Translations under genes and position numbers: made by a program
NCBI RefSeq assembly: GCF_964204865.1
Contig: NC_135261.1
Span: 10,664,001 to 10,728,000, forward strand
Reading direction: 5' to 3'
Origin: Styela clava
Lineage: Eukaryota
Length of the DNA: 64,000 nucleotides
The notes under the pieces: generated by a model
Told to the model about the DNA's origin: nothing
What the model saw: only the letters and a program-made list of their open reading frames with translations
Database searches by the model: none
In this document: positions 24,406 to 50,143 of the stretch, one piece after another
Position numbering within the stretch: the stretch's first letter is position 1
Layout of the letters: the number at the start of each line of letters is the position of its first letter

Positions 24406-27054
24406 TTATATACATCTGACATATCTGAAGCATCCGTCATACTTGACAATGCGGTAGGATTTGTACGTGCTGAAATAGGATTATGTTAAACAGGAAAAAC
24501 TCTGATTCAATTCAATTACAAAACTAACTAAGACTTACCAGAATTGCTTGTAAGCAAAGCAATAAGAAGAAGACGTGGGCAACACGCATCGATAATTATA
24601 GGTGATCTTAAGTTCTCGAAGTTGCACACAGTATGTACATTTGAATCCACAAGCATAATGCTCCTTCAGATCACTGAGATGTTTCCCCCAGTCTTGTTCA
24701 ATCTTGGTCACTATGTCGGTGTGTTCTTTCTTCGTTTTCTCTTCGTAGGCGTTGTACAATTTTTGAGCTTCGTTGCCGAGTGGTTTGCCCATATAAAATT
24801 CAAGCAGTTTCAAATACTGTTCCGTTCTGAGTTGGGCAATCTAAACATTTTTGCAAGAATTATATAAATATAAATACATATTTTAAACAAAATGTCACGC
24901 TGTCAACCTTTTCCAATCTCTCTGTAATGCATTTCAGTCTTCTTTCAAACCGTTCCGATAAGCACTTTACATAGCTTTCGATCTTTGTCTTTCTGGTAGA
25001 TAGGCATGTTGCATATTGTGCAACATATTTGGCAATTCGCTCATTGAGCCTTTGCTCGTGGCAACCAATCATGTCAGTGTATGCCTTGGAAGCGCGAGAA
25101 AGGCGCTCCCCAAGCTTTTTTTCATACTCTGCAATCGCTTTTTTCTTTTGTTCGTCCAATGATTTCTGATATTCTTCTAGGGAAGTCAAGTTATCTGCTG
25201 TGATGCAATTGTTTCTGGAAATATAAAGAGCAACTGAGCCAAATGTCATCTTATGATATACTTATTCACCGTGACACTTACTGTACTAAGTAATTTGCTT
25301 TATAATACGTTATCAAACATTTGTGTCTCTCATCAACAATCTTTTTGAAAGACTCCAATGCCTTCTGATTAGTTATTTTTGCTTGCGCATACCAATCATC
25401 ATATGTTTTCTTCATGGATTCAATTATTGTCTTAGCTTTATTATCAAGGTCTTCTTTGAATTTTTGTTCGGTGATATTAACTTCATCTTAAGTGTAATAA
25501 AAACATTAAATTCAGTGAAACATAAAGACAATTGAGCAAACGTTTTAGGACTTGCACTAACCGGTTACACATTTTTTCAGCTCCTTGTATTTGATTGTCC
25601 TGTATTGAAATTTGTAGGTCAAGAAACGGAAGCAACTTCTTTGGGTAGTAATTTTGTACGTCCACCATTTCCCGATACTTCGACTATAAAGAAAAAACCA
25701 AGAGTAGAATTATATTGATATATACTATTTACCTGCCATTTATTTATAATTACCAATTGGTGTAAAATTGACTTCTGCCAAAACAGAGAGTTCCGCCGTA
25801 TGCGCACTGATAAGCGCATGCGTAGCTTTTTACAAGTTCTCCGATAGCTGCAGTTAGCTTCGCGGTGTATTCGTCCAACTGTGTTTGATATGATAAAGTT
25901 TCTTTAGTTTTGAAAGCCTCCAAAACTGCATTAACGTCTGCTCCGTTCCAATCCTCAGAACCTAAATGTAAAGTTCCATTATGAATAAAAGTATGTGCAA
26001 AATTCGAAAGAATAGAAAAAACTTACAATGGGCTCTGTATATGAGTTTTTGGAACACTTCAGATCTTTGTTTTACGATGGCTTCCATGACACATTTATAT
26101 TTTGTCTCATACTCTGTCACGCGCTTTTCGAGAGCTTTTTTGTATTCTTCTATTTTAGCTAAACGAGTGTTGAAGCATGTAACAGACCTGAAATAAGAAA
26201 GGTTCGAATTTTTTGTTCTCTTGTAAACGAACTTTTGAACTTACAGTAACACACCTCTCGACAAGTTTTTTGTGATATTCCTGCACACAAGCGAATCTTT
26301 TCTGCATGTCATCGTTATAATTTTTTTTTGCTTCTTCCAACAATGAATCTAGTTTTGTATTATAATTTTCAATAGCCTTCTTGTTGGTCTCCTTCATTTC
26401 TTCTGACTCTTCCTGCAATCCCGTAATTCTAAAAATTCACGATGTTAGTAATTTGAGTAAGAAAAGAATACGTAAGAAAGAATTGTAAGAAGAAATACAA
26501 ACTTCAAATACTGCTTTGCATATTCCTCGATAGCGTCTTCGTGCTTTGTCTTTGCCTCGGTATTTTGATTTGTTGCAGTTTCAACCCAATCCCCCTTTTT
26601 TTGTTGCATATCAAGATATATTTTATCGGCCACTTCTTTCAATTGTTTTTTAACTTCAGTTTCAAAAACGGCCACCGTCATCTCTATAATACAAAAAATC
26701 ATGCCTCAAAATGTGTGTTTCTCAAATTATTCAGAAAAACATACAATTCAGAATTACCTTCGAATCCATCCTCTGTGCATTTCTCTCCTGGATAGCTCTT
26801 CAGAACATTAGAGTAATATTTCGTTGTGAACCAAGCAGGACAGTAGTAGCTTCGGAAACTGTAGCATCCGTAATTGATTCGGTAAAATTGTCCGACATTG
26901 TAAGTAACATATCCACAATGACTCGGTTGGTATAGAGCGGCATTGGCAACCTGTAAACATTATAATTTAGGCAAAATTGATAAAAAGAAACGAAGGGCAC
27001 TATTTATCAAATACTTACGGCCAAACAGCCTAGAAGTAACAATAAAATCTTCAT
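24406..27054 (-). CDS. Same 11-exon secreted helical Cys-rich protein, copy 4 (variant exon 3-6 haplotype)
   Basis: Colinear, frame intact; QQKYEDW>QQKKGDW, KKRYACVLEYHEK>QKRFACVQEYHKK; 8-bp deletion in intron 2. Confidence 0.87.
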
Positions 27055-29287
27055 GATCGTCTTTATTCAGGTTGTTGAACAACGACTTGTCGAATCCCTG
27101 TTGTGCGCTTGTATATATGGGATTTCTTCCCTCTCTTCAAAATCCAAGTACCAGCTCCTTTATGTTTTAATGTTACTTTAGTGAGCTCTTATCTCGACCA
27201 CAATGATTGAAATTGTCAGAAGCGCAACAAATGTTTACCTCGAATCGCTATGCCGTAGTTATAACAGAAAGTTCAGTTTATTTCATTTAAATCTTCCATC
27301 ATTGTGCATTTAGTAAAAAGGTAATTGTTAATTAATCTTTTTATTGTGAAGTACATTATTTTTCAACTAATAAGATACCACTTCGACATAGCTATTCACT
27401 TCATCAGTACGCATTGTTTATATAAATATAACTTCAGGGTTGAAGATAGTTAGTCAATAGCTATTACATCCAATTGAACAGCATTACTAAAAAAATAGAA
27501 GTTTTTCAACAACACTTTATTTTTATTATTCACTCTTTGGTATACGCATACAATTGTTTTAACAGCAAAATGTACGACTTTTGAATCATAGATTGATTGA
27601 CGTTCTCATGCTTGACAGCGTCAATCAATCAGAAAAATTTCCTGATCATATAAGCATTAACAATGTATCTGGAATAGCCATAATGAATGAACACTGTAAT
27701 ATGAGTTATTCGGACATGGATTGTGCACACGAAGAATATTTCACTCGTTGTCAGTGGTATTGGAGTTGGGAATTATCTTTTCACCTCCAAAATGATAAAT
27801 CGGAAATTGGTGTAGAATACTCCAATTAATTTAAAAATGAATTTTATGTTCTATTTAATTGCTGGCATTTAAACATTTATATATATAACGCCAACGACAA
27901 CCTCTAAATGAAAAGATAACGATTGTATTAATATCGGGATCGACACAAAACAGGATTATACAGAACTCGACGACGTTCGTCGACAACACCAATAAAGTCG
28001 AAATATCCAGTTTCATAACGTTTCGTCATAGGTATCAAAGTCGAAAATTTTATTTCCGAATTCGGAATTCTCAAAACATTTGAATCCTACTTCAATATGA
28101 TAAAGTTGGAAAGTACTAAATATTTTTAGTGTATTTCCATCATATTCAAAGCAAAAACACAAAATGTTGAGTTATAAATTATATTTTTAATCAAGAGCTG
28201 TCATATCCGTATAAATAATATCACAAATAAACCATTTGTTTTTGACGAAGCACTTATATCCTTATGTTAGAACAAGCAGTTTATTTTGTATATTCGTATG
28301 CAAGTAAAACGTTGATGTTTCGATAGATTGATTGACGTTGTCATTCTCCGAGAATACTGAATCCCAAAAGAATATTTCAACTACTTACCTAGCATCTAGT
28401 GGACAGTTTCATATCGGGCGCCTTTAAATATATGGACTTCAAGATATTTTTTTGTAATTCGAGACAAATTTCCAAACATCATCAATATTTCCCGGATTCT
28501 CCTCATGCATAAATATTTCTATTTCTGAAAATATTCAATATGCTAATGTGCAGCTCGACTTTTGACGCGCGTCAAATATTGTTTGACAACGTCAATCAAA
28601 CAAAACATGTCATTGTTTAGATAATAGATGCTCAAAAATTGTAAGCAAAACAATGTTTGTGATTACACCCTGTAGGAAGTGGATAATTGAGAACCGAAGA
28701 TCAGCCATCATCAGAATTTGTTAAAACTCGTCAGTTGTCAAATATCATATTAATTAAAAGGCTATATCATGATATTAGTTCATGAAATGGTTTATTTTTA
28801 CTGCCTAATAACCGGTAACCAAGACTGAAACAAGCAAATTAAATTCAGAGGAAACCCTACAGACGACGATCCATCTGTTGGGGTAGCTTTGCTCGTACTG
28901 GAGAGCCTGCTGATGGGTTAGAAAATTCTCTTGGAGATTTTCCTGACTGGTAACAGTATTCGTCACCATCAATGACAAAGCGGTATCTCGAAAGTATCCT
29001 CGAAACAATTTTCAGGGGATGAATCATGATTTTGATTAAGGTGAACTTATGAAGAATAATTTGCCAATAATTAAATCATGAATTGAAATACATATTTATA
29101 ACTGAACGTATTTGCAATCGTAGAGGTAGAAATTAATAACATACATATATTCAATTTAGAAAAAAAAAGGTTATGACCAACATGTCCTCATAATATCCTG
29201 AGCATCATTTTTTTTATCGTCACTTTTCAATTCCCCAAGTTTTACGTTAACTTAAAATAACCAAATCGGTCTGACTTTAGCACATTG

Positions 29288-29293
29288 TAGGTA
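29288..29293. other. Transposon excision footprint TA-GG-TA (unit 4)
   Basis: cacattgTAggTAcagtt versus empty site cacattgTAcagtt; GG equals the first bases of the left TIR. Confidence 0.9.
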
Positions 29294-30974
29294 CAGTTAT
29301 ACTATCAACTGCCGAGCAGGATAATGGTGTTTAGCGCAACACCATCGTCGGCAATATATTGTGTGCGGGCATGCATCTTTCAAAAATCCCATATTTTATT
29401 TCACCAAAGACCATAATTTGATGAAAAATCCGATTTGTTAAAAAATCATCTAAATTAAGAAATGAAGACCTAAAATTGAACATTTCATATGACATTGAAT
29501 TATTTTGCACAAATCCTGGAATAACATAATATAAATATGTACGATTCATAACATGCATTAAGTGGGAAAACTGTTCTAATCATAAAATATTAAATAGCTG
29601 ATCCCACCTTTGGGGGTAGCCCACAGAATTTCTCTATTATTTCTCCTTTTTTTTAAGGGCTGATCCAAAGATGTCTAACTTGATTATCCGTTCATGTTGT
29701 AGTTTACAGGTGGCAAGAGTTATAGCTTGCATATTCTAAAATCGTTTAAATCTTCTAAACCATTTCATGATTTTTTTACACGAAGTAACAACAAACCATG
29801 ACTGGGAAAGTCTGCGAATCAAAGCTCCGGAAGGGTGAAATTGAGGGAAGGGTACGAGCAGGATATATGTGACTTGTGGGAAGGTATAGGATTCTGTATG
29901 GATTCAATACTGTTACCGACAACAACAGATACCGTAGTTGATGTAGAACGGATCCACCGATTCACCGAACGGATTCGGACAGGCCGAACGGATTCACCGA
30001 TTTTCACAACGAGTAATGCAAGATCAGACTCTCAACATTCATTTATTTTTATTTTTTCCTGCCTGCTTTCACTTTTATGGTTGAACTTGAATGTCCAGGA
30101 AGAATAACTTATTATATTGATAACTGATAATAATACGTCTTTTGGCTTAAATATATTATTTAATTACCTCATTAATTAATTACCTTTTCTTTAATGTACT
30201 TTATTTCAGCTATCTGAGAATCACTCTACAATACATGAACTAACAACCTCTATTGACTTGAATAAAATACACGAAGTCAATACATCTTGCTATATGAAAT
30301 CCTATTTCATAAATATATATACCAAATAAGGCAAATAGGCTATGATAGATGCTTACCTGTCCTTTCACCCCAATCAATTCATTTATATATTTTACCATAT
30401 TTCCATGCATATTTTGAGGTTGTTTTTTCGAGTTGCGCCTAAAAGTGGTTTGCGTGTTTAAAACTATAATTTTACATGACATTTAACGGTATTAATTCCG
30501 AATGTCAACCCAGGTAGATCCAAATTTTAACTTCGTTCCATGACTCCAATATTAGGAAATCGTTGCGTCTTCAAAAAGTTTGGGTTACTACTGTTTGACG
30601 AATAAAGTTGAATAAAATCCAGAAAAACACATTTAGTGTTACAACAACGTACAATGTTTTTGAAATTTGTTCCGGAGAATACAAGCAAACGAACAGTAAC
30701 CCCAACACCTGTTTTGCATAGTCGTTCCCGAAGTTGGCGATTAATCATCAGTGGCTTTAAAAAACTATAATGACGTCATATTGAATATAACGCATTGAGC
30801 CAAATAAAAAAATAACGTTGTACTTAAGTTTTCAATTTGTAAACTGAATTTATTAAGATCGGATGCCCTTGATTCTTCTGATTATATTCTTCAAGTTTTT
30901 GTTACTCTAAGTTTAGGTAATGTTTCCTAATTATCAATAAAATACCAGTCTTTCGAAACAGGAATGTACTAGAG

Positions 30975-31823
30975 CAGGGGTCAGCCTACGGCCCGCGGGC
31001 CAGATCCTGTCCGCGGAGTAAAATAATCCAGCACGCGATTCTTTACTGAATTATAGAAATCGGCTGTTTTGATGATTATATTCTTTACGTAACAGATTTT
31101 ATTTTAAGTCACGTGTAGACTAATTTATACTATAACCTAACAAGTAAATAAGTAGGCTACTCGTTTATTAATTATAATTAGACAAATGGCAACAAACCGC
31201 AGACTAGTTTATGCTAAGTGCAAAGGGTTCAATGGCGCAGAAAATATTTAAATGAATTTTATTGAGATGAAGAAATAAATTTATATTCCTTTTTAAGAAA
31301 TGTATCTTTGCTTGATTTTTATAAAAAAGTATCTTCTTGAAAGAAAACCTTACCCCAATTTGAGTGACAAATCATGCGAATAACTTTCTATCGATGTTTG
31401 GAAGTACATATGTACGCGAACAATTATTTCAGAAAACGAACATTACAAAGAACAAGCTGAGAATTCGGATTAGTGAAGCCCATTTATAAAATGTTTTTAT
31501 CTTGGCTTCATTCAGTGTCCCATTCAGAAAACGTTTCCCATTCAGTGACGTTGAAAACGTATTAAGCGGGTTGCAACAAAAAGTGTCACATTAAATGTCA
31601 TTTGTAATTTTTCTTCTCAAGTAAAACGATTAAGTTGAGTTCACGAGTTGTCGCAGTCTTCGCACGCTGCTTAAATCCTAAAATGTCAACATCTGATCTG
31701 ATCAAAAAATTGCGATTAATCGGCCATACCTTCGGTTTTTAACTTTCTAAAAATATGTGACACCCAACAAGACTCGCAACCTTTAGTTTTGGTCCGCGAG
31801 CGACAAAAGGTTGCCGACATCAT
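30975..31823 (+). mobile_element. Decayed hAT element, unit 4
   Basis: Copy of 6747-7595. Confidence 0.75.
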
Positions 31824-32482
31824 AAAGTTTTCTTATATGGTGCACAAATATCACCAGTATGTTATTAAGATATACTAATTGTGGAATTTGGCAATAATAT
31901 GATTGTCCTGAGACATTCTTTTTAATATAATTCCATTTCTCATTCAACATTTGTCATTTCTGAACCTAACAATTTGACCTGTATTTCCCATTTTGATTTC
32001 TTGTGCATCGCTCAGAGTTTCATCTCAAGTTATCAATTTTTAGAAGTACAATTTCAATGAGAAGTTTGAAAGTATCGGTTGTGCTATAATAGGGATTTGG
32101 GAAATGAATTTTCGGCACAACAGCTTTTTCTACTATTTGGACCCTGGCGTTACCGGGTCGCAAATAAAGGAGGTTACAAGGAGTATGAAGCATGCATGTT
32201 GAAAAATAAAGCGCCTTGTGCTTTGCGAAGTATGTAACTGATGTTATTGCGTGATACAATTTTACATGTAAATGTATAGAAATAGTGTTCAATCCACACG
32301 TACTTTCAAATCCCGGTCACCAAAGATGCCTCTAACCACATTATAACACTTCTATTTGCATTTGCTTAGAATTTATTGTCAATATCAGCAGATGGCAAAG
32401 GCAATTGGCATAAATTCATCAGCCTAATCTAAAACTAAGATATTTCCATGGTCGTTTGTCGTTCGGTTGATGTCGGCGGTGT

Positions 32483-35131
32483 TTATATACATCTGACATA
32501 TCTGAAGCATCCGTCATACTTGACAATGCGGTAGGATTTGTACGTGCTGAAATAGGATTATGTTAAACAGGAAAAACTCTGATTCAATTCAATTACAAAA
32601 CTAACTAAGACTTACCAGAATTGCTTGTAAGCAAAGCAATAAGAAGAAGACGTGGGCAACACGCATCGATAATTATAGGTGATCTTAAGTTCTCGAAGTT
32701 GCACACAGTATGTACATTTGAATCCACAAGCATAATGCTCCTTCAGATCACTGAGATGTTTCCCCCAGTCTTGTTCAATCTTGGTCACTATGTCGGTGTG
32801 TTCTTTCTTCGTTTTCTCTTCGTAGGCGTTGTACAATTTTTGAGCTTCGTTGCCGAGTGGTTTGCCCATATAAAATTCAAGCAGTTTCAAATACTGTTCC
32901 GTTCTGAGTTGGGCAATCTAAACATTTTTGCAAGAATTATATAAATATAAATACATATTTTAAACAAAATGTCACGCTGTCAACCTTTTCCAATCTCTCT
33001 GTAATGCATTTCAGTCTTCTTTCAAACCGTTCCGATAAGCACTTTACATAGCTTTCGATCTTTGTCTTTCTGGTAGATAGGCATGTTGCATATTGTGCAA
33101 CATATTTGGCAATTCGCTCATTGAGCCTTTGCTCGTGGCAACCAATCATGTCAGTGTATGCCTTGGAAGCGCGAGAAAGGCGCTCCCCAAGCTTTTTTTC
33201 ATACTCTGCAATCGCTTTTTTCTTTTGTTCGTCCAATGATTTCTGATATTCTTCTAGGGAAGTCAAGTTATCTGCTGTGATGCAATTGTTTCTGGAAATA
33301 TAAAGAGCAACTGAGCCAAATGACATCTTATGATATACTTATTCACCGTGACACTTACTGTACTAAGTAATTTGCTTTATAATACGTTATCAAACATTTG
33401 TGTCTCTCATCAACAATCTTTTTGAAAGACTCCAATGCCTTCTGATTAGTTATTTTTGCTTGCGCATACCAATCATCATATGTTTTCTTCATGGATTCAA
33501 TTATTGTCTTAGCTTTATTATCAAGGTCTTCTTTGAATTTTTGTTCGGTGATATTAACTTCATCTTAAGTGTAATAAAAACATTAAATTCAGTGAAACAT
33601 AAAGACAATTGAGCAAACGTTTTAGGACTTGCACTAACCGGTTACACATTTTTTCAGCTCCTTGTATTTGATTGTCCTGTATTGAAATTTGTAGGTCAAG
33701 AAACGGAAGCAACTTCTTTGGGTAGTAATTTTGTACGTCCACCATTTCCCGATACTTCGACTATAAAGAAAAAACCAAGAGTAGAATTATATTGATATAT
33801 ACTATTTACCTGCCATTTATTTATAATTACCAATTGGTGTAAAATTGACTTCTGCCAAAACAGAGAGTTCCGCCGTATGCGCACTGATAAGCGCATGCGT
33901 AGCTTTTTACAAGTTCTCCGATAGCTGCAGTTAGCTTCGCGGTGTATTCGTCCAACTGTGTTTGATATGATAAAGTTTCTTTAGTTTTGAAAGCCTCCAA
34001 AACTGCATTAACGTCTGCTCCGTTCCAATCCTCAGAACCTAAATGTAAAGTTCCATTATGAATAAAAGTATGTGCAAAATTCGAAAGAATAGAAAAAACT
34101 TACAATGGGCTCTGTATATGAGTTTTTGGAACACTTCAGATCTTTGTTTTACGATGGCTTCCATGACACATTTATATTTTGTCTCATACTCTGTCACGCG
34201 CTTTTCGAGAGCTTTTTTGTATTCTTCTATTTTAGCTAAACGAGTGTTGAAGCATGTAACAGACCTGAAATAAGAAAGGTTCGAATTTTTTGTTCTCTTG
34301 TAAACGAACTTTTGAACTTACAGTAACACACCTCTCGACAAGTTTTTTGTGATATTCCTGCACACAAGCGAATCTTTTCTGCATGTCATCGTTATAATTT
34401 TTTTTTGCTTCTTCCAACAATGAATCTAGTTTTGTATTATAATTTTCAATAGCCTTCTTGTTGGTCTCCTTCATTTCTTCTGACTCTTCCTGCAATCCCG
34501 TAATTCTAAAAATTCACGATGTTAGTAATTTGAGTAAGAAAAGAATACGTAAGAAAGAATTGTAAGAAGAAATACAAACTTCAAATACTGCTTTGCATAT
34601 TCCTCGATAGCGTCTTCGTGCTTTGTCTTTGCCTCGGTATTTTGATTTGTTGCAGTTTCAACCCAATCCCCCTTTTTTTGTTGCATATCAAGATATATTT
34701 TATCGGCCACTTCTTTTAATTGTTTTTCAACTTCAGTTTCAAAAACGGCCACCGTCATCTCTATAATACAAAAAATCATGCCTCAAAATGTGTGTTTCTC
34801 AAATTATTCAGAAAAACATACAATTCAGAATTACCTTCGAATCCATCCTCTGTGCATTTCTCTCCTGGATAGCTCTTCAGAACATTAGAGTAATATTTCG
34901 TTGTGAACCAAGCAGGACAGTAGTAGCTTCGGAAACTGTAGCATCCGTAATTGATTCGGTAAAATTGTCCGACATTGTAAGTAACATATCCACAATGACT
35001 CGGTTGGTATAGAGCGGCATTGGCAACCTGTAAACATTATAATTTAGGCAAAATTGATAAAAAGAAACGAAGGGCACTATTTATCAAATACTTACGGCCA
35101 AACAGCCTAGAAGTAACAATAAAATCTTCAT
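32483..35131 (-). CDS. Same 11-exon secreted helical Cys-rich protein, copy 5
   Basis: Colinear with copy 4, frame intact. Confidence 0.87.
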
Positions 35132-37362
35132 GATCGTCTTTATTCAGGTTGTTGAACAACGACTTGTCGAATCCCTGTTGTGCGCTTGTATATATGGAAT
35201 TTCTTCCCTCTCTTCAAAATCCAAGTACCAGCTCCTTTATGTTTTAATGTTACTTTAGTGAGCTCTTATCTCGACCACAATGATTGAAATTGTCAGAAGC
35301 GCAACAAATGTTTACCTCGAATCGCTATGCCGTAGGTATAACAGAAAGTTCAGTTTATTTCATTTAAATCTTCCATCATTGTGCATTTAGTAAAAAGGTA
35401 ATTGTTAATTAATCTTTTTATTGTGAAGTACATTATTTTTCAACTAATAAGATACCACTTCGACATAGCTATTCACTTCATCAGTACGCATTGTTTATAT
35501 AAATATAACTTCAGGGTTGAAGATAGTTAGTCAATAGCTATTACATCCAATTGAACAGCATTACTAAAAAAATAAAAGTTTTTCAACAACACTTTATTTT
35601 TATTATTCACTCTTTGGTATACGCATACAATTGTTTTAACAGCAAAATGTACGACTTTTGAATCATAGATTGATTGACGTTCTCATGCTTGACAGCGTCA
35701 ATCAATCAGAAAAATTTCCTGATCATATAAGCATTAACAATGTATCTGGAATAGCCATAATGAATGAACACTGTAATATGAGTTATTCGGACATGGATTG
35801 TGCACACGAAGAATATTTCACTCGTTGTCAGTGGTATTGGAGTTGGGAATTATCTTTTCACCTCCAAAATGATAAATCGGAAATTGGTATAGAATACTCC
35901 AATTAATTTAAAAATGAATTTTATGTTCTGTTTAATTGCTGGCATTTAAACATATATATATCTAAGGCCAACGACAACCTCTAAATGAAAAGATAACGAT
36001 TGTATTAATATCGGGATCGACACAAAACAGGATTATACAGAACTCGACGACGTTCGTCGACAACACCAATAAAGTCGAAATATCCAGTTTCATAACGTTT
36101 CGTCATAGGTCTCAAAGTCGAAAATTTTATTTCCGAATTCGGAATTCTCAAAACATTTGAATCCTACTTCAATATGATAAAGTTGGAAAGTACTAAATAT
36201 TTTTAGTGTATTTCCATCATATTCAAAGCAAAAACACAAAATGTTGAGTTATAAATTATATTTTTAATCAAGAGCTGTCATATCCGTATAAATAATATCA
36301 CAAATAAACCATTTGTTTTTGACGAAGCACTTATATCCTTATGTTAGAACAAGCAGTTTATTTTGAATATTCGTATGCAAGTAAAACGTTGATGTTTCGA
36401 TAGATTGATTGACGTTGTCATTCTCCGAGAATACTGAATCCCAAAAGAATATTTCAACTACTTACCTAGCATCTAGTGGACAGTTTCATATCGGGCGCCT
36501 TTAAATATATGGACTTCAAGATATTTTTTTGTAATTCGAGACAAATTTCCAAACATCATCAATATTTCCCGGATTCTCCTCATGCATAAATATTTCTATT
36601 TCTGAAAATTTCAATATGCTAATGTGCAGCTCGACTTTTGACGCGCGTCAAATATTGTTTGACAACGTCAATCAAACAAAACATGTCATTGTTTAGATAA
36701 TAGATGCTCAAAAATTGTAAGCAAAACAATGTTTGTGATTACACCCTGTAGGAAGTGGATAATTGAGAACCGAAGATCAGCCATCATCAGAATTTGTTAA
36801 AACTCGTCAGTTGTCAAATATCATATTAATTAAAAGGCTATATCATGATATTAGTTCATGAAATGGTTTATTTTTACTGCCTAATAACCGGTAACCAAGA
36901 CTGAAACAAGCAAATTAAATTCAGAGGAAACCCTACAGACGACGATCAATCTGTTGGGGTAGCTTTGCTCGTACTGGAGAGCCTGCTGATGGGTTAGAAA
37001 ACTCTCTTGGAGATTTTCCTGACTGGTAACAGTATTCGTCACCATCAATGACAAAGCGGTATCTCGAAAGTATCCTCGAAACAATTTTCAGGGGATGAAT
37101 CATGATTTTGATTAAGGTGAACTTATGATGAATAATTTGCCAATAATTAAATCATGAATTGAAATACATATTTATAACTGAACGTATTTGCAATCGTAGA
37201 GGTAGAAATTAATAACATACATATATTCAATTTAGAAAAAAAAAGGTTATGACCAACATGTCCTCATAATATCCTGAGCATCATTTTTTTATCGTCACTT
37301 TTCAATTCCCCAAGTTTTACGTTAACTTAAAATAACCAAATCGGTCTGACTTTAGCACATTG

Positions 37363-37369
37363 TAGGCTA
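37363..37369. other. Transposon excision footprint TA-GGC-TA (unit 5)
   Basis: cacattgTAggcTAcagtt; GG from the left end plus C from the right end of the unit-6 element. Confidence 0.9.
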
Positions 37370-39040
37370 CAGTTATACTATCAACTGCCGAGCAGGATAA
37401 TGGTGTTTAGCACAACACCATCGTCGGCAATATATTGTGTGCAGGCATGCATCTTTCAAAAATCCCATATTTTATTTCACCAAAGACCAAAATTTGATGA
37501 AAAATCCGATTTGTTAAAAAATCATCTAAATTAAGAAATGAAGACCTAAAATTGAACATTTCATATGACATTGAATTATTTTGCACAAATCCTGGAATAA
37601 CATAATATAAATATGTACGATTCATAACATGCATTAAGTGGGAAAACTGTTCTAATCATAAAATATTAAATAGCTGATCCCACCTTTGGGGGTAGCCCAC
37701 AGAATTTCTCTATTATTTCTCCTTTTTTTAAGGGCTGATCCAAAGATGTCTAACTTGATTATCCGTTCATGTTGTAGTTTACAGGTGGCAAGAGTTATAG
37801 CTTGCATATTCTAAAATCGTTTAAATCTTCTAAACCATTTCATGATTTTTTTACACGAAGTAACAACAAACCATGACTGGGAAAGTCTGCGAATCAAAGC
37901 TCCGGAAGGGTGAAATTGAGGGAAGGGTACGAGCAGGATATATGTGACTTGTGGGAAGGTATAGGATTCTGTATGGATTCAATACTGTTACCGACAACAA
38001 CAGATACCGTAGTTGATGTAGAACGGATCCACCGATTCACCGAACGGATTCGGATAGGCCGAACGGATTCACCGATTTTCACAACGAGTAATGCAAGATC
38101 AGACTCTCAACATTCATTTATTTTTATTTTTTCCTGCCTGCTTTCACTTTTATGGTTGAACTTGAATGTCCAGGAAGAATAACTTATTATATTGATAACT
38201 GATAATAATACGTCTTTTGGCTTAAATATATTATTTAATTACCTCATTAATTAATTACCTTTTCTTTAATGTACTTTATTTCAGCTATCTGAGAATCACT
38301 CTACAATACATGAACTAACAACCTCTATTGACTTGAATAAAATACACGCAGTCAATACATCTTGCTATATGAAATCCTATTTCATAAATATATATACCAA
38401 ATAGGCTATGATGGATGCTTACCTGCCCTTTCACCCCAATTAATTCATTTATATATTTTACCATATTTCCATGCATATTTTGAGGTTGTTTTTTCGAGTT
38501 GCGCCTAAAAGTGGTTTGCGTGTTTAAAACTATAATTTCACATGACATTTAACGGTATTAATTCCGAATGTCAACCCAGGTAGATCCAAATTTTAACTTC
38601 GTTTCATGACTCCAATATTAGGAAATCGTTGCGTCTTCAAAAAGTTTGGGTTACTACTGTTTGACGAATAAAGTTGAATAAAATCCAGAAAAACACATTT
38701 AGTGTTACAACAACGTACAATGTTTTTGAAATTTGTTCCGGAGAATACAAGCAAACGAACAGTAACCCCAACACCTGTTTTGCATAGTCGTTCCCGAAGT
38801 TGGCAATTAATCATCAGTGGCTTTAAAAAACTATAATGACGTCATATTGGATATAACGCATTGAGCCAAATAAAAAAATAACGTTGTACTTAAGTTTTCA
38901 ATTTGTAAACTGAATTTATTAAGATCGGATGCCCTTGATTCTTCTGATTATATTCTCCAAGTTTTTGTTACTCTAAGTTTAGGTAATGTTTCCTAATTAT
39001 CAATAAAATACCAGTCTTTCGAAACAGGAATGTACTAGAG

Positions 39041-39889
39041 CAGGGGTCAGCCTACGGCCCGCGGGCCAGATCCTGTCCGCGGAGTAAAATAATCCAGCAC
39101 GCGATTCTTTACTGAATTATAGAAATCGGCTGTTTTGATGATTATATTCTTTACGTAACAGAATTTATTTTAAGTCACGTGTAGACTAATTTATACTATA
39201 ACCTAACAAGTAAATAAGTAGGCTACTCGTTTATTAATTATAATTAGACAAATGGCAACAAACCGCAGAATAGTTTATACTAAGTGCAAAGGGTTCAATG
39301 GCGCAGAAAATATTTAAATGAATTTTATTGGGATGAAGAAATAAATTTATATTCCTTTTTAAGAAATGTATCTTTGCTTGATTTTTATAAAAAAGTATCT
39401 TCTTGAAAGAAAACCTTACCCCAATTTGAGTGACAAATCATGCGAATAACTTTCTATCGATGTTTGGAAGTACATATGTACGCGAACAATTATTTCAGAA
39501 AACGAACATTACAAAGAACAAGCTGAGAATTCGGATTAGTGATGCCCATTTATAAAATGTTTTTATCTTGGCTTCATTCAGTGTCCCATTCAGAAAACGT
39601 TTCCCATTCAGTGACGTTGAAAACGTATTAAGCGGGTTGCAACAAAAAGTGTCACATTAAATGTCATTTGTAATTTTTCTTCTCAAGTAAAACGATTAAG
39701 TTGAGTTCACGAGTTGTCGCAGTCTTCGCACGCTGCTTAAATCCTAAAATGTCAACATCTGATCTGATCAAAAAATTGCGATTAATCGGCCATACCTTCG
39801 GTTTTTAACTTTCAAAAAATATGTGACACCCAACAAGACTCGCAACCTTTAGCTTTGGTCCACGAGCGACAAAAGGTTGCCGACATCAT
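39041..39889 (+). mobile_element. Decayed hAT element, unit 5
   Basis: Copy of 6747-7595. Confidence 0.75.
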
Positions 39890-40548
39890 AAAGTTTTCTT
39901 ATATGGTGCACAAATATCACCAGTATGTTATTAAGATATACTAATTGTGGAATTTGGCAATAATATGATTGTTCTGAGACATTCTTTTTAATATAATTCC
40001 ATTTCTCATCCAACATTTGTCATTTCTGAACCTAACAATTTGACCTGTATTTCCCATTTTGATTTCTTGTGCATCGCTCAGAGTTTCATCTCAAGTTATC
40101 AATTTTTAGAAGTACAATTTCAATGAGAAGTTTGAAATTATCGGTTGTGCTTTAATAGGGATTTGGGAAATAAATTTTCGGCACAACAGCTTTTTCTACT
40201 ATTTGCACCCTGGCGTTACCGGGTCGCAAATAAAGGGGGTTACAAGGAGTATGAAGCATGCATGTTGAAAAATAAAGCGCCTTGTGCTTTGCGAAGTATG
40301 TAACTGATGTTATTGCGTGATACAATTTGACATGTAAATGTATAGAAATAGTGTTCAATCCACACGTACTTTCAAATCCCGGTCACCAAAGATGCCTCTA
40401 ACCACATTATAACACTTCTATTTGCATTTGCTTAGAATTTATTGTCAATATCAGCAGATGGTAAAGGCAATTGGCATAAATTCATCAGCCTAATCTAAAA
40501 CTAAGATATTTCCATGGTCGTTTGTCGTTCGGTTGATGTCGGCGGTGT

Positions 40549-43197
40549 TTATATACATCTGACATATCTGAAGCATCCGTCATACTTGACAATGCGGTAG
40601 GATTTGTACGTGCTGAAATAGGATTATGTTAAACAGGAAAAACTCTGATTCAATTCAATTACAAAACTAACTAAGACTTACCAGAATTGCTTGTAAGCAA
40701 AGCAATAAGAAGAAGACGTGGGCAACACGCATCGATAATTATAGGTGATCTTAAGTTCTCGAAGTTGCACACAGTATGTACATTTGAATCCACAAGCATA
40801 ATGCTCCTTCAGATCACTGAGATGTTTCCCCCAGTCTTGTTCAATCTTGGTCACTATGTCGGTGTGTTCTTTCTTCGTTTTCTCTTCGTAGGCGTTGTAC
40901 AATTTTTGAGCTTCGTTGCCGAGTGGTTTGCCCATATAAAATTCAAGCAGTTTCAAATACTGTTCCGTTCTGAGTTGGGCAATCTAAACATTTTTGCAAG
41001 AATTATATAAATATAAATACATATTTTAAACAAAATGTCACGCTGTCAACCTTTTCCAATCTCTCTGTAATGCATTTCAGTCTTCTTTCAAACCGTTCCG
41101 ATAAGCACTTTACATAGCTTTCGATCTTTGTATTTCTGGTAGATAGGCATGTTGCATATTGTGCAACATATTTGGCAATTCGCTCATTGAGCCTTTGCTC
41201 GTGGCAACCAATCATGTCAGTGTATGCCTTGGAAGCGCGAGAAAGGCGCTCCCCAAGCTTTTTTTCATACTCTGCAATCGCTTTTTTCTTTTGTTCGTCC
41301 AATGATTTCTGATATTCTTCTAGGGAAGTCAAGTTATCTGCTGTGATGCAATTGTTTCTGGAAATATAAAGAGCAACTGAGCCAAATGTCATCTTATGAT
41401 ATACTTATTCACCGTGACACTTACTGTACTAAGTAATTTGCTTTATAATACAATATCAGACATTTGTGTCTCTCATCAACAATCTTTTTGAAAGACTCCA
41501 ATGCCTTCTGATTAGTTATTTTTGCTTGCGCATACCAATCATCATATGTTTTCTTCATGGATTCAATTATTGTCTTAGCTTTATTATCAAGGTCTTCTTT
41601 GAATTTTTGTTCGGTGATATTAACTTCATCTTAAGTGTAATAAAAACATTAAATTCAGTGAAACATAAAGACAATTGAGCAAACGTTTTAGGACTTGCAC
41701 TAACCGGTTACACATTTTTTCAGCTCCTTGTATTTGATTGTCCTGTATTGAAATTTGTAGGTCAAGAAACGGAAGCAACTTCTTTGGGTAGTAATTTTGT
41801 ACGTCCACCATTTCCCGATACTTCGACTATAAAGAAAAAACCAAGAGTAGAATTATATTGATATATACTATTTACCTGCCATTTATTTATAATTACCAAT
41901 TGGTGTAAAATTGACTTCTGCCAAAACAGAGAGTTCCGCCGTATGCGCACTGATAAGCGCATGCGTAGCTTTTTACAAGTTCTCCGATAGCTGCAGTTAG
42001 CTTCGCGGTGTATTCGTCCAACTGTGTTTGATATGATAAAGTTTCTTTAGTTTTGAAAGCCTCCAAAACTGCATTAACGTCTGCTCCGTTCCAATCTTCA
42101 GAACCTAAATGTAAAGTTCCATTATGAATAAAAGTATGTGCAAAATTCGAAAGAATAGAAAAAACTTACAATGGGCTCTGTATATGAGTTTTTGGAACAC
42201 TTCAGATCTTTGTTTTACGATGGCTTCCATGACACATTTATATTTTGTCTCATACTCTGTCACGCGCTTTTCGAGAGCTTTTTTGTATTCTTCTATTTTA
42301 GCTAAACGAGTGTTGAAGCATGTAACAGACCTGAAATAAGAAAGGTTCGAATTTTTTGTTCTCTTGTAAACGAACTTTTGAACTTACAGTAACACACCTC
42401 TCGACAAGTTTTTTGTGATATTCCTGCACACAAGCGAATCTTTTCTGCATGTCATCGTTATAATTTTTTTTTGCTTCTTCCAACAATGAATCTAGTTTTG
42501 TATTATAATTTTCAATAGCCTTCTTGTTGGTCTCCTTCATTTCTTCTGACTCTTCCTGCAATCCCGTAATTCTAAAAATTCACGATGTTAGTAATTTGAG
42601 TAAGAAAAGAATACGTAAGAAAGAATTGTAAGAAGAAATACAAACTTCAAATACTGCTTTGCATATTCCTCGATAGCGTCTTCGTGCTTTGTCTTTGCCT
42701 CGGTATTTTGATTTGTTGCAGTTTCAACCCAATCCCCCTTTTTTTGTTGCATATCAAGATATATTTTATCGGCCACTTCTTTCAATTGTTTTTCAACTTC
42801 AGTTTCAAAAACGGCCACCGTCATCTCTATAATACAAAAAATCATGCCTCAAAATGTGTGTTTCTCAAATTATTCAGAAAAACATACAATTCAGAATTAC
42901 CTTCGAATCCATCCTCTGTGCATTTCTCTCCTGGATAGCTCTTCAGAACATTAGAGTAATATTTCGTTGTGAACCAAGCAGGACAGTAGTAGCTTCGGAA
43001 ACTGTAGCATCCGTAATTGATTCGGTAAAATTGTCCGACATTGTAAGTAACATATCCACAATGACTCGGTTGGTATAGAGCGGCATTGGCAACCTGTAAA
43101 CATTATAATTTAGGCAAAATTGATAAAAAGAAACGAAGGGCACTATTTATCAAATACTTACGGCCAAACAGCCTAGAAGTAACAATAAAATCTTCAT
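40549..43197 (-). CDS. Same 11-exon secreted helical Cys-rich protein, copy 6
   Basis: Colinear with copy 4, frame intact; private changes KCLITYY>KCLILYY and TRKTK>TRNTK. Confidence 0.87.
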
Positions 43198-45991
43198 GAT
43201 CGTCTTTATTCAGGTTGTTGAACAACGACTTGTCGAATCCCTGTTGTGCGCTTGTATATATGGGATTTCTTCCCTCTCTTCAAAATCCAAGTACCAGCTC
43301 CTTTATGTTTTAATGTTACTTTAGTGAGCTCTTATCTCGACCACAATGATTGAAATTGTCAGAAGCGCAACAAATGTTTACCTCGAATCGCTATGCCGTA
43401 GTTATAACAGAAAGTTCAGTTTATTTCATTTAAATCTTCCATCATTGTGCATTTAGTAAAAAGGTAATTGTTAATTAATCTTTTTATTGTGAAGTACATT
43501 ATTTTTCAACTAATAAGATACCACTTCGACATAGCTATTCACTTCATCAGTACGCATTGTTTATATAAATATAACTTCAGGGTTGAAGATAGTTAGTCAA
43601 TAGCTATTACATCCAATTGAACAGCATTACTAAAAAAATAGAAGTTTTTCAACAACACTTTATTTTTATTATTCACTCTTTGGTATACGCATACAATTGT
43701 TTTAACAGCAAAATGTACGACTTTTGAATCATAGATTGATTGACGTTCTCATGCTTGACAGCGTCAATCAATCAGAAAAATTTCCTGATCATATAAGCAT
43801 TAACAATGTATCTGGAATAGCCATAATGAATGAACACTGTAATATGAGTTATTCGAACATGGATTGTGCACACGAAGAATATTTCACTCGTTGTCAGTGG
43901 TATTGGAGTTGGGAATTATCTTTTCACCTCCAAAATGATAAATCGGAAATTGGTGTAGAATACTCCAATTAATTTAAAAATGAATTTTATGTTCTGTTTA
44001 ATTGCTGGCATTTAAACATATATATATCTAACGCCAACGACAACCTCTAAATGAAAAGATAACGATTGTATTAATATCGGGATCGACACAAAACAGGATT
44101 ATACAGAACTCGACGACGTTCGTCGACAACACCAATAAAGTCGAAATATCCAGTTTCATAACGTTTCGTCATAGGTCTCAAAGTCGAAAATTTTATTTCC
44201 GAATTCGGAATTCTCAAAACATTTGAATCCTACTTCAATATGATAAAGTTGGAAAGTACTAAATATTTTTAGTGTATTTCCATCATATTCAAAGCAAAAC
44301 ACAAAATGTTGAGTTATAAATTATATTTTTAATCAAGAGCTGTCATATCCGTATAAATAATATCACAAATAAACCATTTGTTTTTGACGAAGCACTTATA
44401 TCCTTATGTTAGAACAAGCAGTTTATTTTGAATATTCGTATGCAAGTAAAACGTTGATGTTTCGATAGATTGATTGACGTTGTCATTCTCCGAGAATACT
44501 GAATCCCAAAAGAATATTTCAACTACTTACCTAGCATCTAGTGGACAGTTTCATATCGGGCGCCTTTAAATATATGGACTTCAAGATATTTTTTTGTAAT
44601 TCGAGACAAATTTCCAAACATCATCAATATTTCCCGGATTCTCCTCATGCATAAATATTTCTATTTCTGAAAATATTCAATATGCTAATGTGCAGCTCGA
44701 CTTTTGACGCGCGTCAAATATTGTTTGACAACGTCAATCAAACTAAACATGTCATTGTTTAGATAATAGATGCTCAAAAATTGTAAGCAAAACAATGTTT
44801 GTGATTACACCCTGTAGGAAGTGGATAATTGAGAACCGAAGATCAGCCATCATCAGAATTTGTTAAAACTCGTCAGTTGTCAAATATCATATTAATTAAA
44901 AGGCTATATCATGATATTAGTTCATGAAATGGTTTATTTTTACTGCCTAATAACCGGTAACCAAGACTGAAACAAGCAAATTAAATTCAGAGGAAACCCT
45001 ACAGACGACGATCAATCTGTTGAGGTAGCTTTGCTCGTACTGGAGAGCCTGCTGATGGGTTAGAAAACTCTCTTGGAGATTTTCCTGACTGGTAACAGTA
45101 TTCGTCACCATCAATGACAAAGCGGTATCTCGAAAGTATCCTCGAAACAATTTTCAGGGGATGAATCATGATTTTGATTAAGGTGAACTTATGATGAATA
45201 ATTTGCCAATAATTAAATCATGAATTGAAATACATATTTATAACTGAACGTATTTGCAATCGTAGAGGTAGAAATTAATAACATACATATATTCAATTTA
45301 GAAAAAAAAAGGTTATGACCAACATGTCCTCATAATATCCTGAGCATCATTTTTTTTATCGTCACTTTTCAATTCCCCAAGTTTTACGTTAACTTAAAAT
45401 AACCAAATCGGTCTGACTTTAGCACATTGTAGGGGAAAGGCAGGTTAGTTGATGCTGTAGTTTAGATGATACAGCGCTTCTCACGGCCGTGCAATGCACT
45501 TTAAGAAACTAATGCGCCACCTGGTGTTTGGCTAGAATATGATCTTCCTTTCTGTTAGTCGTCTGACGATGTTGGTTGCAGCACGTGTAAAATTTTCGAA
45601 AAAAATCAATTTTTGAGATCTGGAGTGAAAACGTCAAATCAAGGTAAATTGATTATTTTTTCAGGCATTATAAATGAGCGATGCAAGCGAGTATTTCCTT
45701 GCAGTAGTGTATGATATCGCTTACATAACAGCCTACATGTTTCTGGATACTGATTTGATTTCTTCCCACTACGGGCCTTTTTTTCAAAATGGCCACAGGT
45801 TGACTAGTTGATACAATCGTGGTTCCATTAGTTGATACGTGTATCGACTAACCCTGTTATTTATTCCATGTATTTTTTTAGCATATTTTTCAGCAAATAT
45901 ATTTTCAGACTTTCTTTTAACCGGCTTTTATGGTTTGCAGCATTGTCAATATTTTTACGCTGCCAATATTGTTTTCAACGTATTTTAGGTG

Positions 45992-47301
45992 ATGCCTCAG
46001 TTCTAGAGAAGAAAAACAAACAGAGCCATAAGAACTCCCCCGGATGTGATGTCGAGGGCGGCTGACGATGTTGTTCGCGGGCGATCATTGAGGAGTGTAG
46101 CTGAAGCATTTGGCATCGATAAAATGACTTTGTCTCGTTTTATAGCCAAGCGCAAAAATAATCCTAACGCAATTACAGGTTACGCTGCTGTTGCTCATGC
46201 ACATTATGTTATTCCTCAGCAAATGGAAGAAGATCTGGGAAATCATGTCAAACGATTGGCCGACATGTTTTTTGGACTCTCTCTTGAAACAGTGTTGTAA
46301 ACTAGCTTATGAATTTACATTTCAAAACCAGCTGTATATGCCATTGTCTTGGAAAATCAACAAAAAAGCGGGAAAAGCTTGGTGGCTAGGGTTCAAAAAA
46401 CGACAAAATCTTTCCATACGGACTCCAGAGGCAACTTCACTCGGAAGGGCGACTGCATTTAATCGTCACACGGTTGGTGAATTTTTCGACAACTTAGCAC
46501 AGGTCATGGATGTGGACGATTTTCACCCTGAAGATATTTACAATCTCGATGAAACCGGGTGCACCACTGTTCAAACCCCATCTGATATTGTTACAGCCAA
46601 GGGTAAAAAACAAGTGGGTGCAGCTACGTCTGCTGAGCGTGGTGAACTGGTTACGGTAGTCTACACCATCTGCGCCTCTGGTAATGTGCTTCCACCTATG
46701 TTTATATTTCCGCGCGTAAACTTCCACAACCACTTTATCATTGAAGGGCCACCGGGCTGCATTGGACAAGCAACAAAGTCTGGCTAGATTAATGAAGAAC
46801 TTTTTCTCGTTTATCTAGAACATCTGGTGCGCCAGACTCGTTGTACTCCCGAAAGAAAAATTCTTTTGATTTTGGATAACCACGAGTCTCATATTTCTTT
46901 ACGTGCTGTTGAGATGGCAAGATCCAATGGAGTAGTTATGCTTACTTCACCACCTCACACATCTCATCGATTGCAACCGCTTGATAAAACGGTGTATGGT
47001 CCTTTCAAAGCCAGTTATAACAGAGCGATGGAGAGTTGGCTACGTAGTCATGCTGGGAAAACTGTTACAATATATGATGTTCCTGGCATTGTAAAAGAGG
47101 CTCAAATGTCAGCAATGACATCGAGGAATATTCTATCTGGATTTCAAAGCACTGGGATATACCCTTTCAATCGCGATATTTTTACTGATGCAGATTTTGC
47201 AGCTGCAACTTTAACGGACCGAGAAGTCGTTGGCGTTGATCGTAATGAACCAGGACAGTCCTCAAAATGCACGGATCCACTGACCCCATGCTGTAGTACT
47301 G

Positions 47302-47337
<36 letters not shown>

Positions 47338-48037
47338 CTGAAAATCGTTGCACTCCTAAACCGAGGGTTGATGAATCAGCGTTTCAGTTACAGAAAACGG
47401 GCAACCCAGATCCCGACTTATCAAATTCTTGCTCGTCGTACGTATCGCCAAGCGAGATTCAAAAAATCCCAAAAGCTCCACAAAGAAAGACCAAGCGCTC
47501 CCGAAAAAAGGAAAGACAAAGATTTTAACATCTACGCCTGTATTAAAAGAGATTTCCCTAGAGAATGAAAAAAGAAAGAAAAACAAGATATGCAGTTCGA
47601 GAAAAAAACTTTTCGCTACAAAAAATAGGAAAGTTCGCCCCCACAATACTAGCAATAGTTCAGAAGAGGAGCGTGCTGTTGTTAGATATGATGATACGAC
47701 TGATGAAGATGAATTATCTGCAGAAGAAATTATGGAAGGTGATTACGTGGTTGTCAAAGTTGACGGGAGATCTAGAAATGTACATTACATCGCTCGTATA
47801 GATTTGCTGGAAGATAATGAGTATGAGGGAGTTTTTCTAAAGAAAGTTTCTAGTCGAGTTTCTGTCGAAGGAGAGCACACTGGTTTTGTATTTGTTCCAA
47901 ATGAAGATGATGGGGCTTCATTCTCGCATGAGGACATAATATGCAGACTACCTCAGCCAACAATTCTTGCAGGATCAGCTCGGAGATGTGTTCGACTTAA
48001 ATTTGATTGCGATTTGAGTAAATGGAATGTAAATTAG
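45992..48037 (+). pseudogene. Disrupted pogo-like transposase (N-terminal HTH, CENP-B-like region, DDE_1 catalytic domain)
   Basis: Motifs SLRSVAEAFGIDKMTLSR, AGKAWWLGFKKRQNLSIRTPE, YNLDETG, LILDNHESH and HTSHRLQPLD..YGPFK (35 residues between the last two Asp), plus KKGKTKILTSTP. Lesions: TAG at 46004, frameshift ~46290, SG*IN at 46785 (expected SGWIN), frameshift ~47505. Confidence 0.92.
47295..47344 (+). mobile_element. Poly(A) insertion flanked by direct repeat AGTACTGAAAA (likely tail-only retroposon insertion with TSD)
   Basis: agtactg-(A)33-gtactgaaaa; net addition 39 bp, in frame (STEKKKKKKKKKKKSTEN). Confidence 0.6.
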
Positions 48038-50143
48038 AGGTTGTCTACCACCATCCAGCAAACCATTTCGTTAAATGAGTTATTTGTTCTTTTTTATTTT
48101 TTTTGCCGCCGTTTCTGGTGAAACTTTCTCTCTCGTTCTTTTGAAACAAGTTATAAGTGATATTTGTGCCTCGTTCCATTTCATTTTTGGAGTAATTGCC
48201 TGCTTTTAAAAACTTTATGCAGAGTGTATCAACAAAACTACCACTGCGCATCAAGTAACCTTACCAGGCAGGATATTTGATACGTTTGACAAGAAAACTT
48301 TAGCGACTGTAAGCGCTAAGTTAGGAAATGACTGAGAGCCCCATTTTGTGGTCATATGTGAGGGACCTATAAATGAATAAATAGGACAAACCAGAACGGC
48401 GATTATTCGAACGGTATTTTTTATGGATCAGTAAAACTAAATTATGTATCAACTTACCTGCCTCTCCCCTACAGTTATACTATCAACTGCCGAGCAGGAT
48501 AATGGTGTTTAGCACAACACCATCGTCGGCAATATATTGTGTGCAGGCATGCATCTTTCAAAAATCCCATATTTTATTTCACCAAAGACCAAAATTTGAT
48601 GAAAAATCCGATTTGTTAAAAAATCATCTAAATTAAGAAATGAAGCCCTAAAATTGAACATTTCATATGGCATTGAATTATTTTGCACAAATCCTGGAAT
48701 AACATAATATAAATATGTACGATTCATAACATGCATTAAGTGGGAAAACTGTTCTAATCATAAAATATTAAATAGCTGATCCCACCTTTGGGGGTAGCCC
48801 ACAGAATTTCTCTATTATTTCTCCTTTTTTTTAAGGGCTGATCCAAAGATGTCTAACTTGATTATCCGTTCATGTTGTAGTTTACAGGTGGCAAGAGTTA
48901 TAGCTTGCATATTCTAAAATCGTTTAAATCTTCTAAACCATTTCATGATTTTTTTACACGAAGTAACAACAAACCATGACTGGGAAAGTCTGCGAATCAA
49001 AGCTCCGGAAGGGTGAAATTGAGGGAAGGGTACGAGCAGGATATATGTGACTTGTGGGAAGGTATAGGATTCTGTATGGATTCAATACTGTTACCGACAA
49101 CAACAGATACCGTAGTTGATGTAGAACGGATCCACCGATTCACCGAACGGATTCGGACAGGCCGAACGGATTCACCGATTTTCACAACGAGTAATGCAAG
49201 ATCAGACTCTCAACATTCATTTATTTTTATTTTTTCCTGCCTGCTTTCACTTTTATGGTTGAACTTGAATGTCCTGGAAGAATAACTTATTATATTGATA
49301 ACTGATAATAATACGTCTTTTGGCTTAAATATATAATTTAATTACCTCATTAATTAATTACCTTTTCTTTAATGTACTTTATTTCAGCTATCTGAGAATC
49401 ACTCTACAATACATGAACTAACAACCTCTATTGACTTGAATAAAATACACGCAGTCAATACATCTTGCTATATGAAATCCTATTTCATAAATATATATAC
49501 CAAATAGGCTATTATGGATGCTTACCTGCCCTTTCACCCCAATTAATTCATTTATATATTTTACCATATTTCCATGCATATTTTGAGGTTGTTTTTTCGA
49601 GTTGCGCCTAAAAGTGGTTTGCGTGTTTAAAACTATAATTTCACATGACATTTAACGGTATTAATTCCGAATGTCAACCCAGGTAGATCCAAATTTTAAC
49701 TTCGTTCCATGACTCCAATATTAGGAAATCGTTGCGTCTTCAAAAAGTTTGGGTTACTACTGTTTGACGAATAAAGTTGAATAAAATCCAGAAAAACACA
49801 TTTAGTGTTACAACAACGTACAATGTTTTTGAAATTTGTTCCGGAGAATACAAGCAAACGAACAGTAACCCCAACACCTGTTTTGCATAGTCGTTCCCGA
49901 AGTTGGCGATTAATCATCAGTGGCTTTAAAAAACTATAATGACGTCATATTGGATATAACGCATTGAGCCAAATAAAAAAATACCGTTGTACTTAAGTTT
50001 TCAATTTGTAAACTGAATTCATTAAGATCGGATGCCCTTGATTCTTCTGATTATATTCTCCAAGTTTTTGTTACTCTAAGTTTAGGTAATGTTTCCTAAT
50101 TATCAATAAAATACCAGTCTTTCGAAACAGGAATGTACTAGAG

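Follow-up and report, generated by a model that had tools for sequence, protein, structure and literature searches.

Site states of a transposon in a tandem array of Styela clava

The window analysed here, 64,000 nucleotides of Styela clava contig NC_135261.1 (assembly GCF_964204865.1, positions 10,664,001 to 10,728,000 of the forward strand), holds a head-to-tail array of units of ~8.07 kb, which are 98-99% identical with the exception of the last unit (~96%). Each unit carries one multi-exon gene on the minus strand, and the sole interruption of the array is a 3-kb insert with a raised GC content. This insert is a transposon assigned to the pogo superfamily, lodged at a TA dinucleotide in the spacer, ~2.2 kb upstream of the ATG of one array gene and ~3.2 kb past the end of the next. 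Seven copies of this site could be located in the window with a 40-nt left-flank anchor (Table 1). Four are empty and consist of a single TA, two carry a second TA behind a filler of GG (site 4) or GGC (site 5), and site 6 holds the complete element between two TAs. The anchor matches confirm these three states in the assembly, as described by a preceding reading made from the letters alone (the sequence-only reading), and they are best read as one insertion followed by two separate excisions.

Both fillers have the form of footprints left by IS630/Tc1/mariner (ITm) transposons, with GG and GGC enclosed by TAs at a position that is occupied by GGGG...CCCC in another unit of their clade. Fillers built solely from left-end G and right-end C represent 3/16 dinucleotides and 4/64 trinucleotides, and a chance footprint would also require duplication of the very TA, among the 675 in a unit, that the element occupies in the neighbouring unit.

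The element is bounded by terminal inverted repeats (TIRs) of 22 bp and flanked by TA on both sides, with a single TA at the four empty paralogous sites, as expected of the pogo superfamily, which belongs to the ITm group. Its transposase matches DDE_1 (PF03184, E=6e-15), with 35 residues between the second and third Asp; this DD35D arrangement is found in 107 of 121 homologues, the motif being unmatched in the other 14. A helix-turn-helix (HTH) match to HTH_psq lies below the Pfam cut-off (E=0.012), and among eight homologues scanned, HTH_psq exceeds the cut-off in two, HTH_Tnp_Tc5 in one. Full-length relatives comprise 620-740 aa, and one S. clava protein matches the DDE region of the element with 98% identity. 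With two stops and two frameshifts in its transposase frame, the copy is not an autonomous element.

In length, TIRs, TA duplication and domain build it resembles a Fot-like element, and it is assigned to the pogo superfamily, probably to the Fot-like family (Gao et al. 2020, PMC7386202), which is marked by DD35D combined with HTH_psq, HTH_Tnp_Tc5 or both. According to the available parts of that source, the Cisa-Fot-like element of Ciona savignyi likewise has a TA/TA duplication, a tunicate host, the 35-residue spacing and a transposase of 600-700 aa with an HTH_psq-type DNA-binding domain (sub-threshold in the present element) and DDE_1. It measures 2982 bp with TIRs of 24 bp, versus 3038 bp and 22 bp here, and is a DD35E element with CCGTG ends, whereas the present element is DD35D with GGGGA ends. 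Looked for as a whole word, GGGGA is absent from file 3 of that paper's supplement, and none of the eight supplementary files mentions Styela. The pogo element Passer shares DD35D, the TA duplication, TIRs of <30 bp and short excision footprints, but its transposases are 400-500 aa long and carry BrkDBD/HTH_Tnp_Tc5, and its footprints were obtained from plasmids in cultured cells, whereas the present ones are chromosomal and presumably inherited (PMC9976928, as far as available). Membership of the Passer family was rejected on the length of the full-length relatives and on the lack of a BrkDBD match in the four transposase pieces of the window and the eight homologues scanned. The accessible parts of PMC8472432 and PMC7325037 lend no more than general support as regards animal DD35D and Fot-like elements.

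Table 1. Features of the spacer site, the element and the array (window coordinates)
Feature	Position	Strand	Remarks
Site 1, empty TA	5073..5074	+	anchor match, reads TG-TA-CAG
Site 2, empty TA	13144..13145	+	anchor match, TG-TA-CAG
Site 3, empty TA	21219..21220	+	anchor match, TG-TA-CAG
Site 4, footprint TA-GG-TA	29288..29293	+	anchor match, TG-TAGGTA-CAG; two left-end bases retained
Site 5, footprint TA-GGC-TA	37363..37369	+	anchor match, TG-TAGGCTA-CAG; two left-end bases and one right-end base
Site 6, left TA of target-site duplication	45430..45431	+	contig 2 of run X1 ends at 45431
Site 6, right TA of target-site duplication	48470..48471	+	contig 8 of run X1 starts at 48470
Site 7, empty TA	56534..56535	+	anchor match, TG-TA-CAG
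Transposon, pogo-superfamily DD35D, probably Fot-like, 3038 bp	45432..48469	+	GGGG...CCCC; single copy in window
Left TIR, 22 bp	45432..45453	+	20/22 complementary to right TIR
Right TIR	48448..48469	-	2 mismatches vs left TIR
Transposase pseudogene	45992..48037	+	N-terminal HTH, DDE_1, DD35D; broken frame
Transposase breaks	stop 46004-46006; frameshift near 46287; stop 46785-46787; frameshift near 47503	+	
In-frame insertion in transposase, 39 bp	47295..47333	+	poly(A) run and duplicated flank (AGTACTG...), absent from sister P0121
Minimal tract of insertion-marked unit lineage	23671..53944	.	positions estimated from alignment columns
Array gene, example copy	32486..35131	-	uncharacterised ~650-aa Styela protein, one per 8.07-kb unit
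Array gene ATGs	2937, 10910, 18985, 27054, 35131, 43197, 54300, 62270	-	8 copies

A shared insertion and the case for two excisions

The sequence-only reading had proposed that one insertion was shared by units 4-6, in which case the unit spacers should form a clade around the site. Sites 4-6 do form such a clade, with SH-aLRT (Shimodaira-Hasegawa-like approximate likelihood ratio test)/bootstrap values of 98.8/100 at ±1.5 kb and 96.6/98 at ±4 kb, and it contains all three marked sites and none of the four empty ones. The grouping is judged from these values and from SNP counts, since a further tree in the comparison disrupted two clades at once and is no clean test of it. Eight single nucleotide polymorphisms (SNPs) are shared by sites 4-6 and absent from the other four sites; three lie on the left and five on the right, from -1614 to +1305 in the site-centred alignment. 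Four of the eight are newly found (+1305 on the right; -825, -1223 and -1614 on the left). The four flanking SNPs quoted earlier are all real (alignment columns 39, 341, 636 and 816), although in 'acagATacc' only the A is specific to the clade. Because the clade is recovered on both flanks and each unit offers so many TA dinucleotides, a single insertion, rather than repeated independent ones, is supported. Local hopping of the element into a hot-spot TA of three units, with two of the insertions later excised, would suit the adjacency of the marked sites, but is hardly credible considering that these sites coincide exactly with the clade, one of 35 possible triples, that one TA in 675 would have been chosen repeatedly, and that the element is found nowhere else in the window.

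The claim of two independent excisions is likewise supported, in that no SNP within ±4 kb groups sites 4 and 5; two (one of them triallelic) group sites 5 and 6, and four group sites 3, 5 and 6. Pairwise differences over the same span amount to 31/7958 between sites 5 and 6, 46/7959 between sites 4 and 5 and 47/7961 between sites 4 and 6. Since only a single base separates GG from GGC and sites 4 and 5 are neighbours, a single excision could be envisaged, with duplication of the footprint-bearing unit and later conversion of GGC to GG, or the reverse, by a 1-bp insertion or deletion (indel) or a consensus error. Sites 4 and 5 should then be sisters, yet site 5 lies nearer to site 6, and the (4,5) tree is marginally rejected at ±4 kb (approximately unbiased test, p-AU 0.046; Kishino-Hasegawa test, p-KH 0.08).

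Several points count against two excisions. At ±4 kb, where the p-KH value for (4,5) stays at 0.08, the assumptions of the tree model are broken by recombination. Over ±1.5 kb, none of the three ways of resolving (4,5,6) is favoured (log-likelihood difference 0.003), the (4,5) tree is not rejected (p-AU 0.117), and the trio is star-like, with unit 4 on a long branch. Furthermore, one SNP (column 5440), 5.4 kb to the right of the sites, joins alignment segments S4 and S5, and is readable as the far right flank of sites 4 and 5. The tree alone is a weak argument for two excisions, and the indel rate a stronger one. Segments S3-S6 contain four 1-bp indels, three of them within homopolymer runs (outside homopolymers, 1 per ~24 kb), so the chance of an indel hitting the one footprint base is ~4e-5, and at most ~4e-4 (Poisson bounds), or roughly 1e-4 overall; moreover, the extra C of GGC is exactly the last (3' terminal) base of the element. 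A single excision thus appears quite unlikely, and even one excision in three copies would already imply a sizeable excision rate.

Support for the joints and for other copies of the element was surveyed in four of 18 runs (X1, X5, X6, which may be RNA, and X18), of which X18 is the only one with raw reads. The footprint joints are among those listed in none of the four, which, with an X18 depth of only ~1-2 beside the site and contigs that drop minor bubble paths, does not amount to negative evidence. The empty joint is present in one X18 read and one X1 contig. On either side of the element, X1 contigs stop precisely at the TA, and their empty path has a depth of 48.6, against 94-102 in the flanks; the ratio fits about half of the sites being non-empty, but X1 is possibly the source sample, and the depth of contigs does not give copy number. 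The missing joints, together with the difficulty of assembling a large array (a cluster of 25 proteins), could suggest that the footprints are assembly artefacts, either consensus remnants of misplaced element-bearing reads or concatenated haplotypes. This is very unlikely: each of segments S1-S6 carries 16-35 private substitutions, two haplotypes of one unit cannot yield three states, and the breaks and halved depth in X1 are at odds with it.

Transposase source, excision mechanism and timing

The breaks in the transposase bear on how the element could have been excised. The frameshift near 46287 also occurs in X1 and X6 contigs, and the sister protein P0121 begins in the shifted frame. The HTH segment is in one chain with the DDE core in 66 of 121 homologues (local BLAST), but not in the P0121 chain. 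Since sister copies share this frameshift and the two S. clava proteins found lack the HTH segment, the copy was probably non-autonomous on arrival. The other breaks appear to be less widely shared. At the first stop, all eleven X18 reads and the X1 contigs have another base, and at the second, all 26 X18 reads lack the stop, as do X1, X5 and X6. The base missing near 47503 is present in X1 and X6 contigs, and the two X18 reads there do not show it. P0121 has neither the second stop, nor the frameshift near 47503, nor the poly(A) insertion. The two stops and the 47503 deletion, not being carried by the bulk of the other copies, could be younger than the excisions. The poly(A) insertion has a pure run of ~30 nt and a flank duplication of 7-11 bp, a pattern suggestive of a tail-only retro-insertion by target-primed reverse transcription.

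As the sequence-only reading had suggested, excision in trans is likely, judging from a resident transposase broken by two stops and two frameshifts, one of which it shares with sister copies. Two points qualify this. No intact S. clava transposase was found, the HTH segment being absent from both of the S. clava proteins seen; furthermore, the in-frame form at 46287 occurs in four of ten X18 reads and one X5 contig, these being unphased and the X5 contig having other frameshifts. Further copies of the element are evident in X18, X1 and X5 from loose ends at its two termini that continue into other flanks. Two internally deleted copies occur in X1 (element 45633-45953 and 46036-47205), joined via 1 and 3 filler bases, as is presumably typical of abortive gap repair after excision. 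The loose ends and internally deleted copies indicate that the family is dispersed and recently mobile.

The size and make-up of the GG and GGC footprints support, by analogy, excision of the IS630/Tc1/mariner/pogo type, in which terminal bases and the duplicated TA remain, as had been assumed in advance (PMC2170065, PMC9976928, PMC7913693, each as far as available). ITm transposases cut precisely at each 3' end but 2-3 nt within the element at each 5' end (PMC2170065). In Tc1/mariner/IS630, another superfamily branch than the present pogo element, repair yields TA, 0-4 terminal bases and TA (PMC2170065, PMC7913693). Footprints of 2-4 bp are reported in the accessible text for Tc1/mariner and of 0-3 bp for ZB (PMC7913693), and of 0-4 bp for Passer (PMC9976928).

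The favoured scenario, to which a probability of about 0.62 is attached, comprises one insertion, amplification and two trans excisions in the germ line by ordinary cut-and-paste. A pogo-superfamily, Fot-like element, probably non-autonomous already, would have entered the spacer TA of one 8-kb unit once, duplicating the TA. The marked unit would soon after have been amplified to three copies, through unequal exchange whose breakpoints lay well away from the site. Transposase from another copy would then have removed the element from two of the three copies in two separate germ-line events, each cut leaving GG (or GGG) as a 3' overhang on either flank. The heterogeneity of the footprints may be explained by the inability of such G-ends to anneal, with end-joining trimming and filling them differently, to GG alone at site 4 and to GG plus C at site 5. 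The third copy, at site 6, would have remained and decayed further. A cut of 2 nt is the simplest account of both footprints, and a 3-nt cut is also possible.

The element copy differs from the X1 majority by at least seven substitutions (at least 0.23%), and the flanks of unit 6 have 16 private SNPs in 7960 positions (0.20%), with 15 for unit 5 and 26 for unit 4. The divergence of the copy is thus close to that of its flanks, which suggests insertion shortly before the three units diverged. However, one haplotype cannot give the order of duplication and excision, and alleles stacked by unequal exchange fit the data too. Units 4-6 differ by 0.4-0.6%, and because these distances are below the reported heterozygosity of S. 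clava (1.72%; PMC7540406, in the part available), the element, GG and GGC may have segregated as alleles of one unit after a single insertion and two excisions, and been stacked later by unequal crossing-over between homologues. The star-like tree at ±1.5 kb is compatible with this, as are mosaic tracts that reveal exchange between units. It would require two exchanges, each catching a different and presumably rare state, and is rather unlikely; the mechanism would otherwise be the same.

Recombination in the array and the array gene

The lineage of units marked by the insertion occupies at least the tract given in Table 1. Its left switch lies at ~22520-23670, 1.3-2.5 kb to the right of empty site 3, and its right switch at ~53940-54940, 1.6-2.6 kb to the left of empty site 7. 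The SNPs at -825 and +38 are in phase at all three marked sites; no crossover was found at the site, and no lineage switch within -825 to +38 of any marked site. Among the seven sites, no empty one carries clade alleles on its near flanks and no sign of template repair was seen. The earlier suggestion that excision breaks drove recombination of the array is not supported by these observations. A specific form of it, with invasion of the sister chromatid by a cut end, copying of a unit and rejoining, which would have produced footprints and extra units together, is most improbable. The similar ages of insertion and amplification (at least 0.23% versus 0.20-0.33%) and the exact coincidence of the amplified with the marked lineage speak for it, but the nearest switches are remote from the marked sites and the TAs closest to them are empty, and clade alleles are missing from the near flanks of the empty sites. 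Somewhat less remote, but still improbable, is the broader proposal that the insertion triggered amplification of its own host unit through sister-chromatid repair of breaks, with a recently mobile Fot-like family of ascidians driving the copy number of a large, tunicate-specific array of genes for predicted secreted proteins. If this were true, two excisions in three copies within 0.2-0.3% divergence would mark the family as still active in S. clava.

At ~31748-32171 (S4 columns 2460-2883), 2.5-2.9 kb to the right of site 4, non-lineage alleles reappear at four markers in a row; between columns 1000 and 3000, S4 shows 13 private SNPs. The reverted stretch is a probable gene-conversion tract, derived from a unit or allele outside the window.

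The closest parallel found is the maize P1-wr array. It too consists of near-identical, gene-sized tandem repeats, mosaic through unequal crossover and conversion, with a transposon in a subset of repeats that was used to order events and whose excision was proposed as a source of a break. It differs in that the element is hAT-like and occurs in 2/11 repeats, and the accessible passages mention no footprints in sister repeats (PMC2686159).

Every step of the favoured scenario is known biology and no mechanism is changed; the array is a tidy natural record of ordinary cut-and-paste excision. In the paralogous units the site before insertion, the element and two results of repair can be compared directly, which is seldom possible at single loci, and the flanking SNPs serve as a clock. 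In the open-access literature, as far as accessible, nothing was found on the present case, on gene arrays whose sister units carry footprints, or on what would be germ-line excision footprints of an animal Fot-like (DD35D) element. The loss of two of three copies within ~0.2-0.3% divergence suggests a high excision rate and hence a recently mobile family in this ascidian. As the site is intergenic, no effect on the host is indicated.

The largest exon of the array gene matches only two protein clusters (2 of 198 candidates), both uncharacterised Styela clava proteins with 93-95% identity. Of the 25 members of one cluster, 15 are listed, 14 of them on a single 21-Mb contig; the window may hold only part of a larger array. 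The protein has a hydrophobic N-terminus, which by eye is likely a signal peptide; its ends and middle are rich in Cys and Tyr, and it contains long helical stretches that are charged. No Pfam family exceeded the cut-off and no usable Atlas match was obtained. With homologues from S. clava only, the gene appears to represent a large lineage-specific family of unassigned function.

Some units differ in other respects. Unit 1 lacks 98 bp found in the other units (window ~4680, to the left of site 1). At ~55400-57050, segment S6 acquires 14 private substitutions between columns 7000 and 8000, while the next unit is ~4% divergent with a shorter spacer, which suggests a junction with an older unit type. 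The spacers also contain remnants of what may be other elements. At ~30964-31820, and repeated in each unit, is a stretch bounded by CAGGGGTCAGCC...CGGCCCGCGGGCC that contains a short frame, FGSTY...EQLF, and is reminiscent of a decayed hAT/Charlie-type element; its 41-aa piece has no Pfam match. Furthermore, a perfect 16-bp inverted repeat with arms 239 nt apart (36405-36675) and a related short palindrome upstream of it (35668-35707) are possibly a relic resembling a miniature inverted-repeat transposable element, situated in the promoter-side spacer of every unit.

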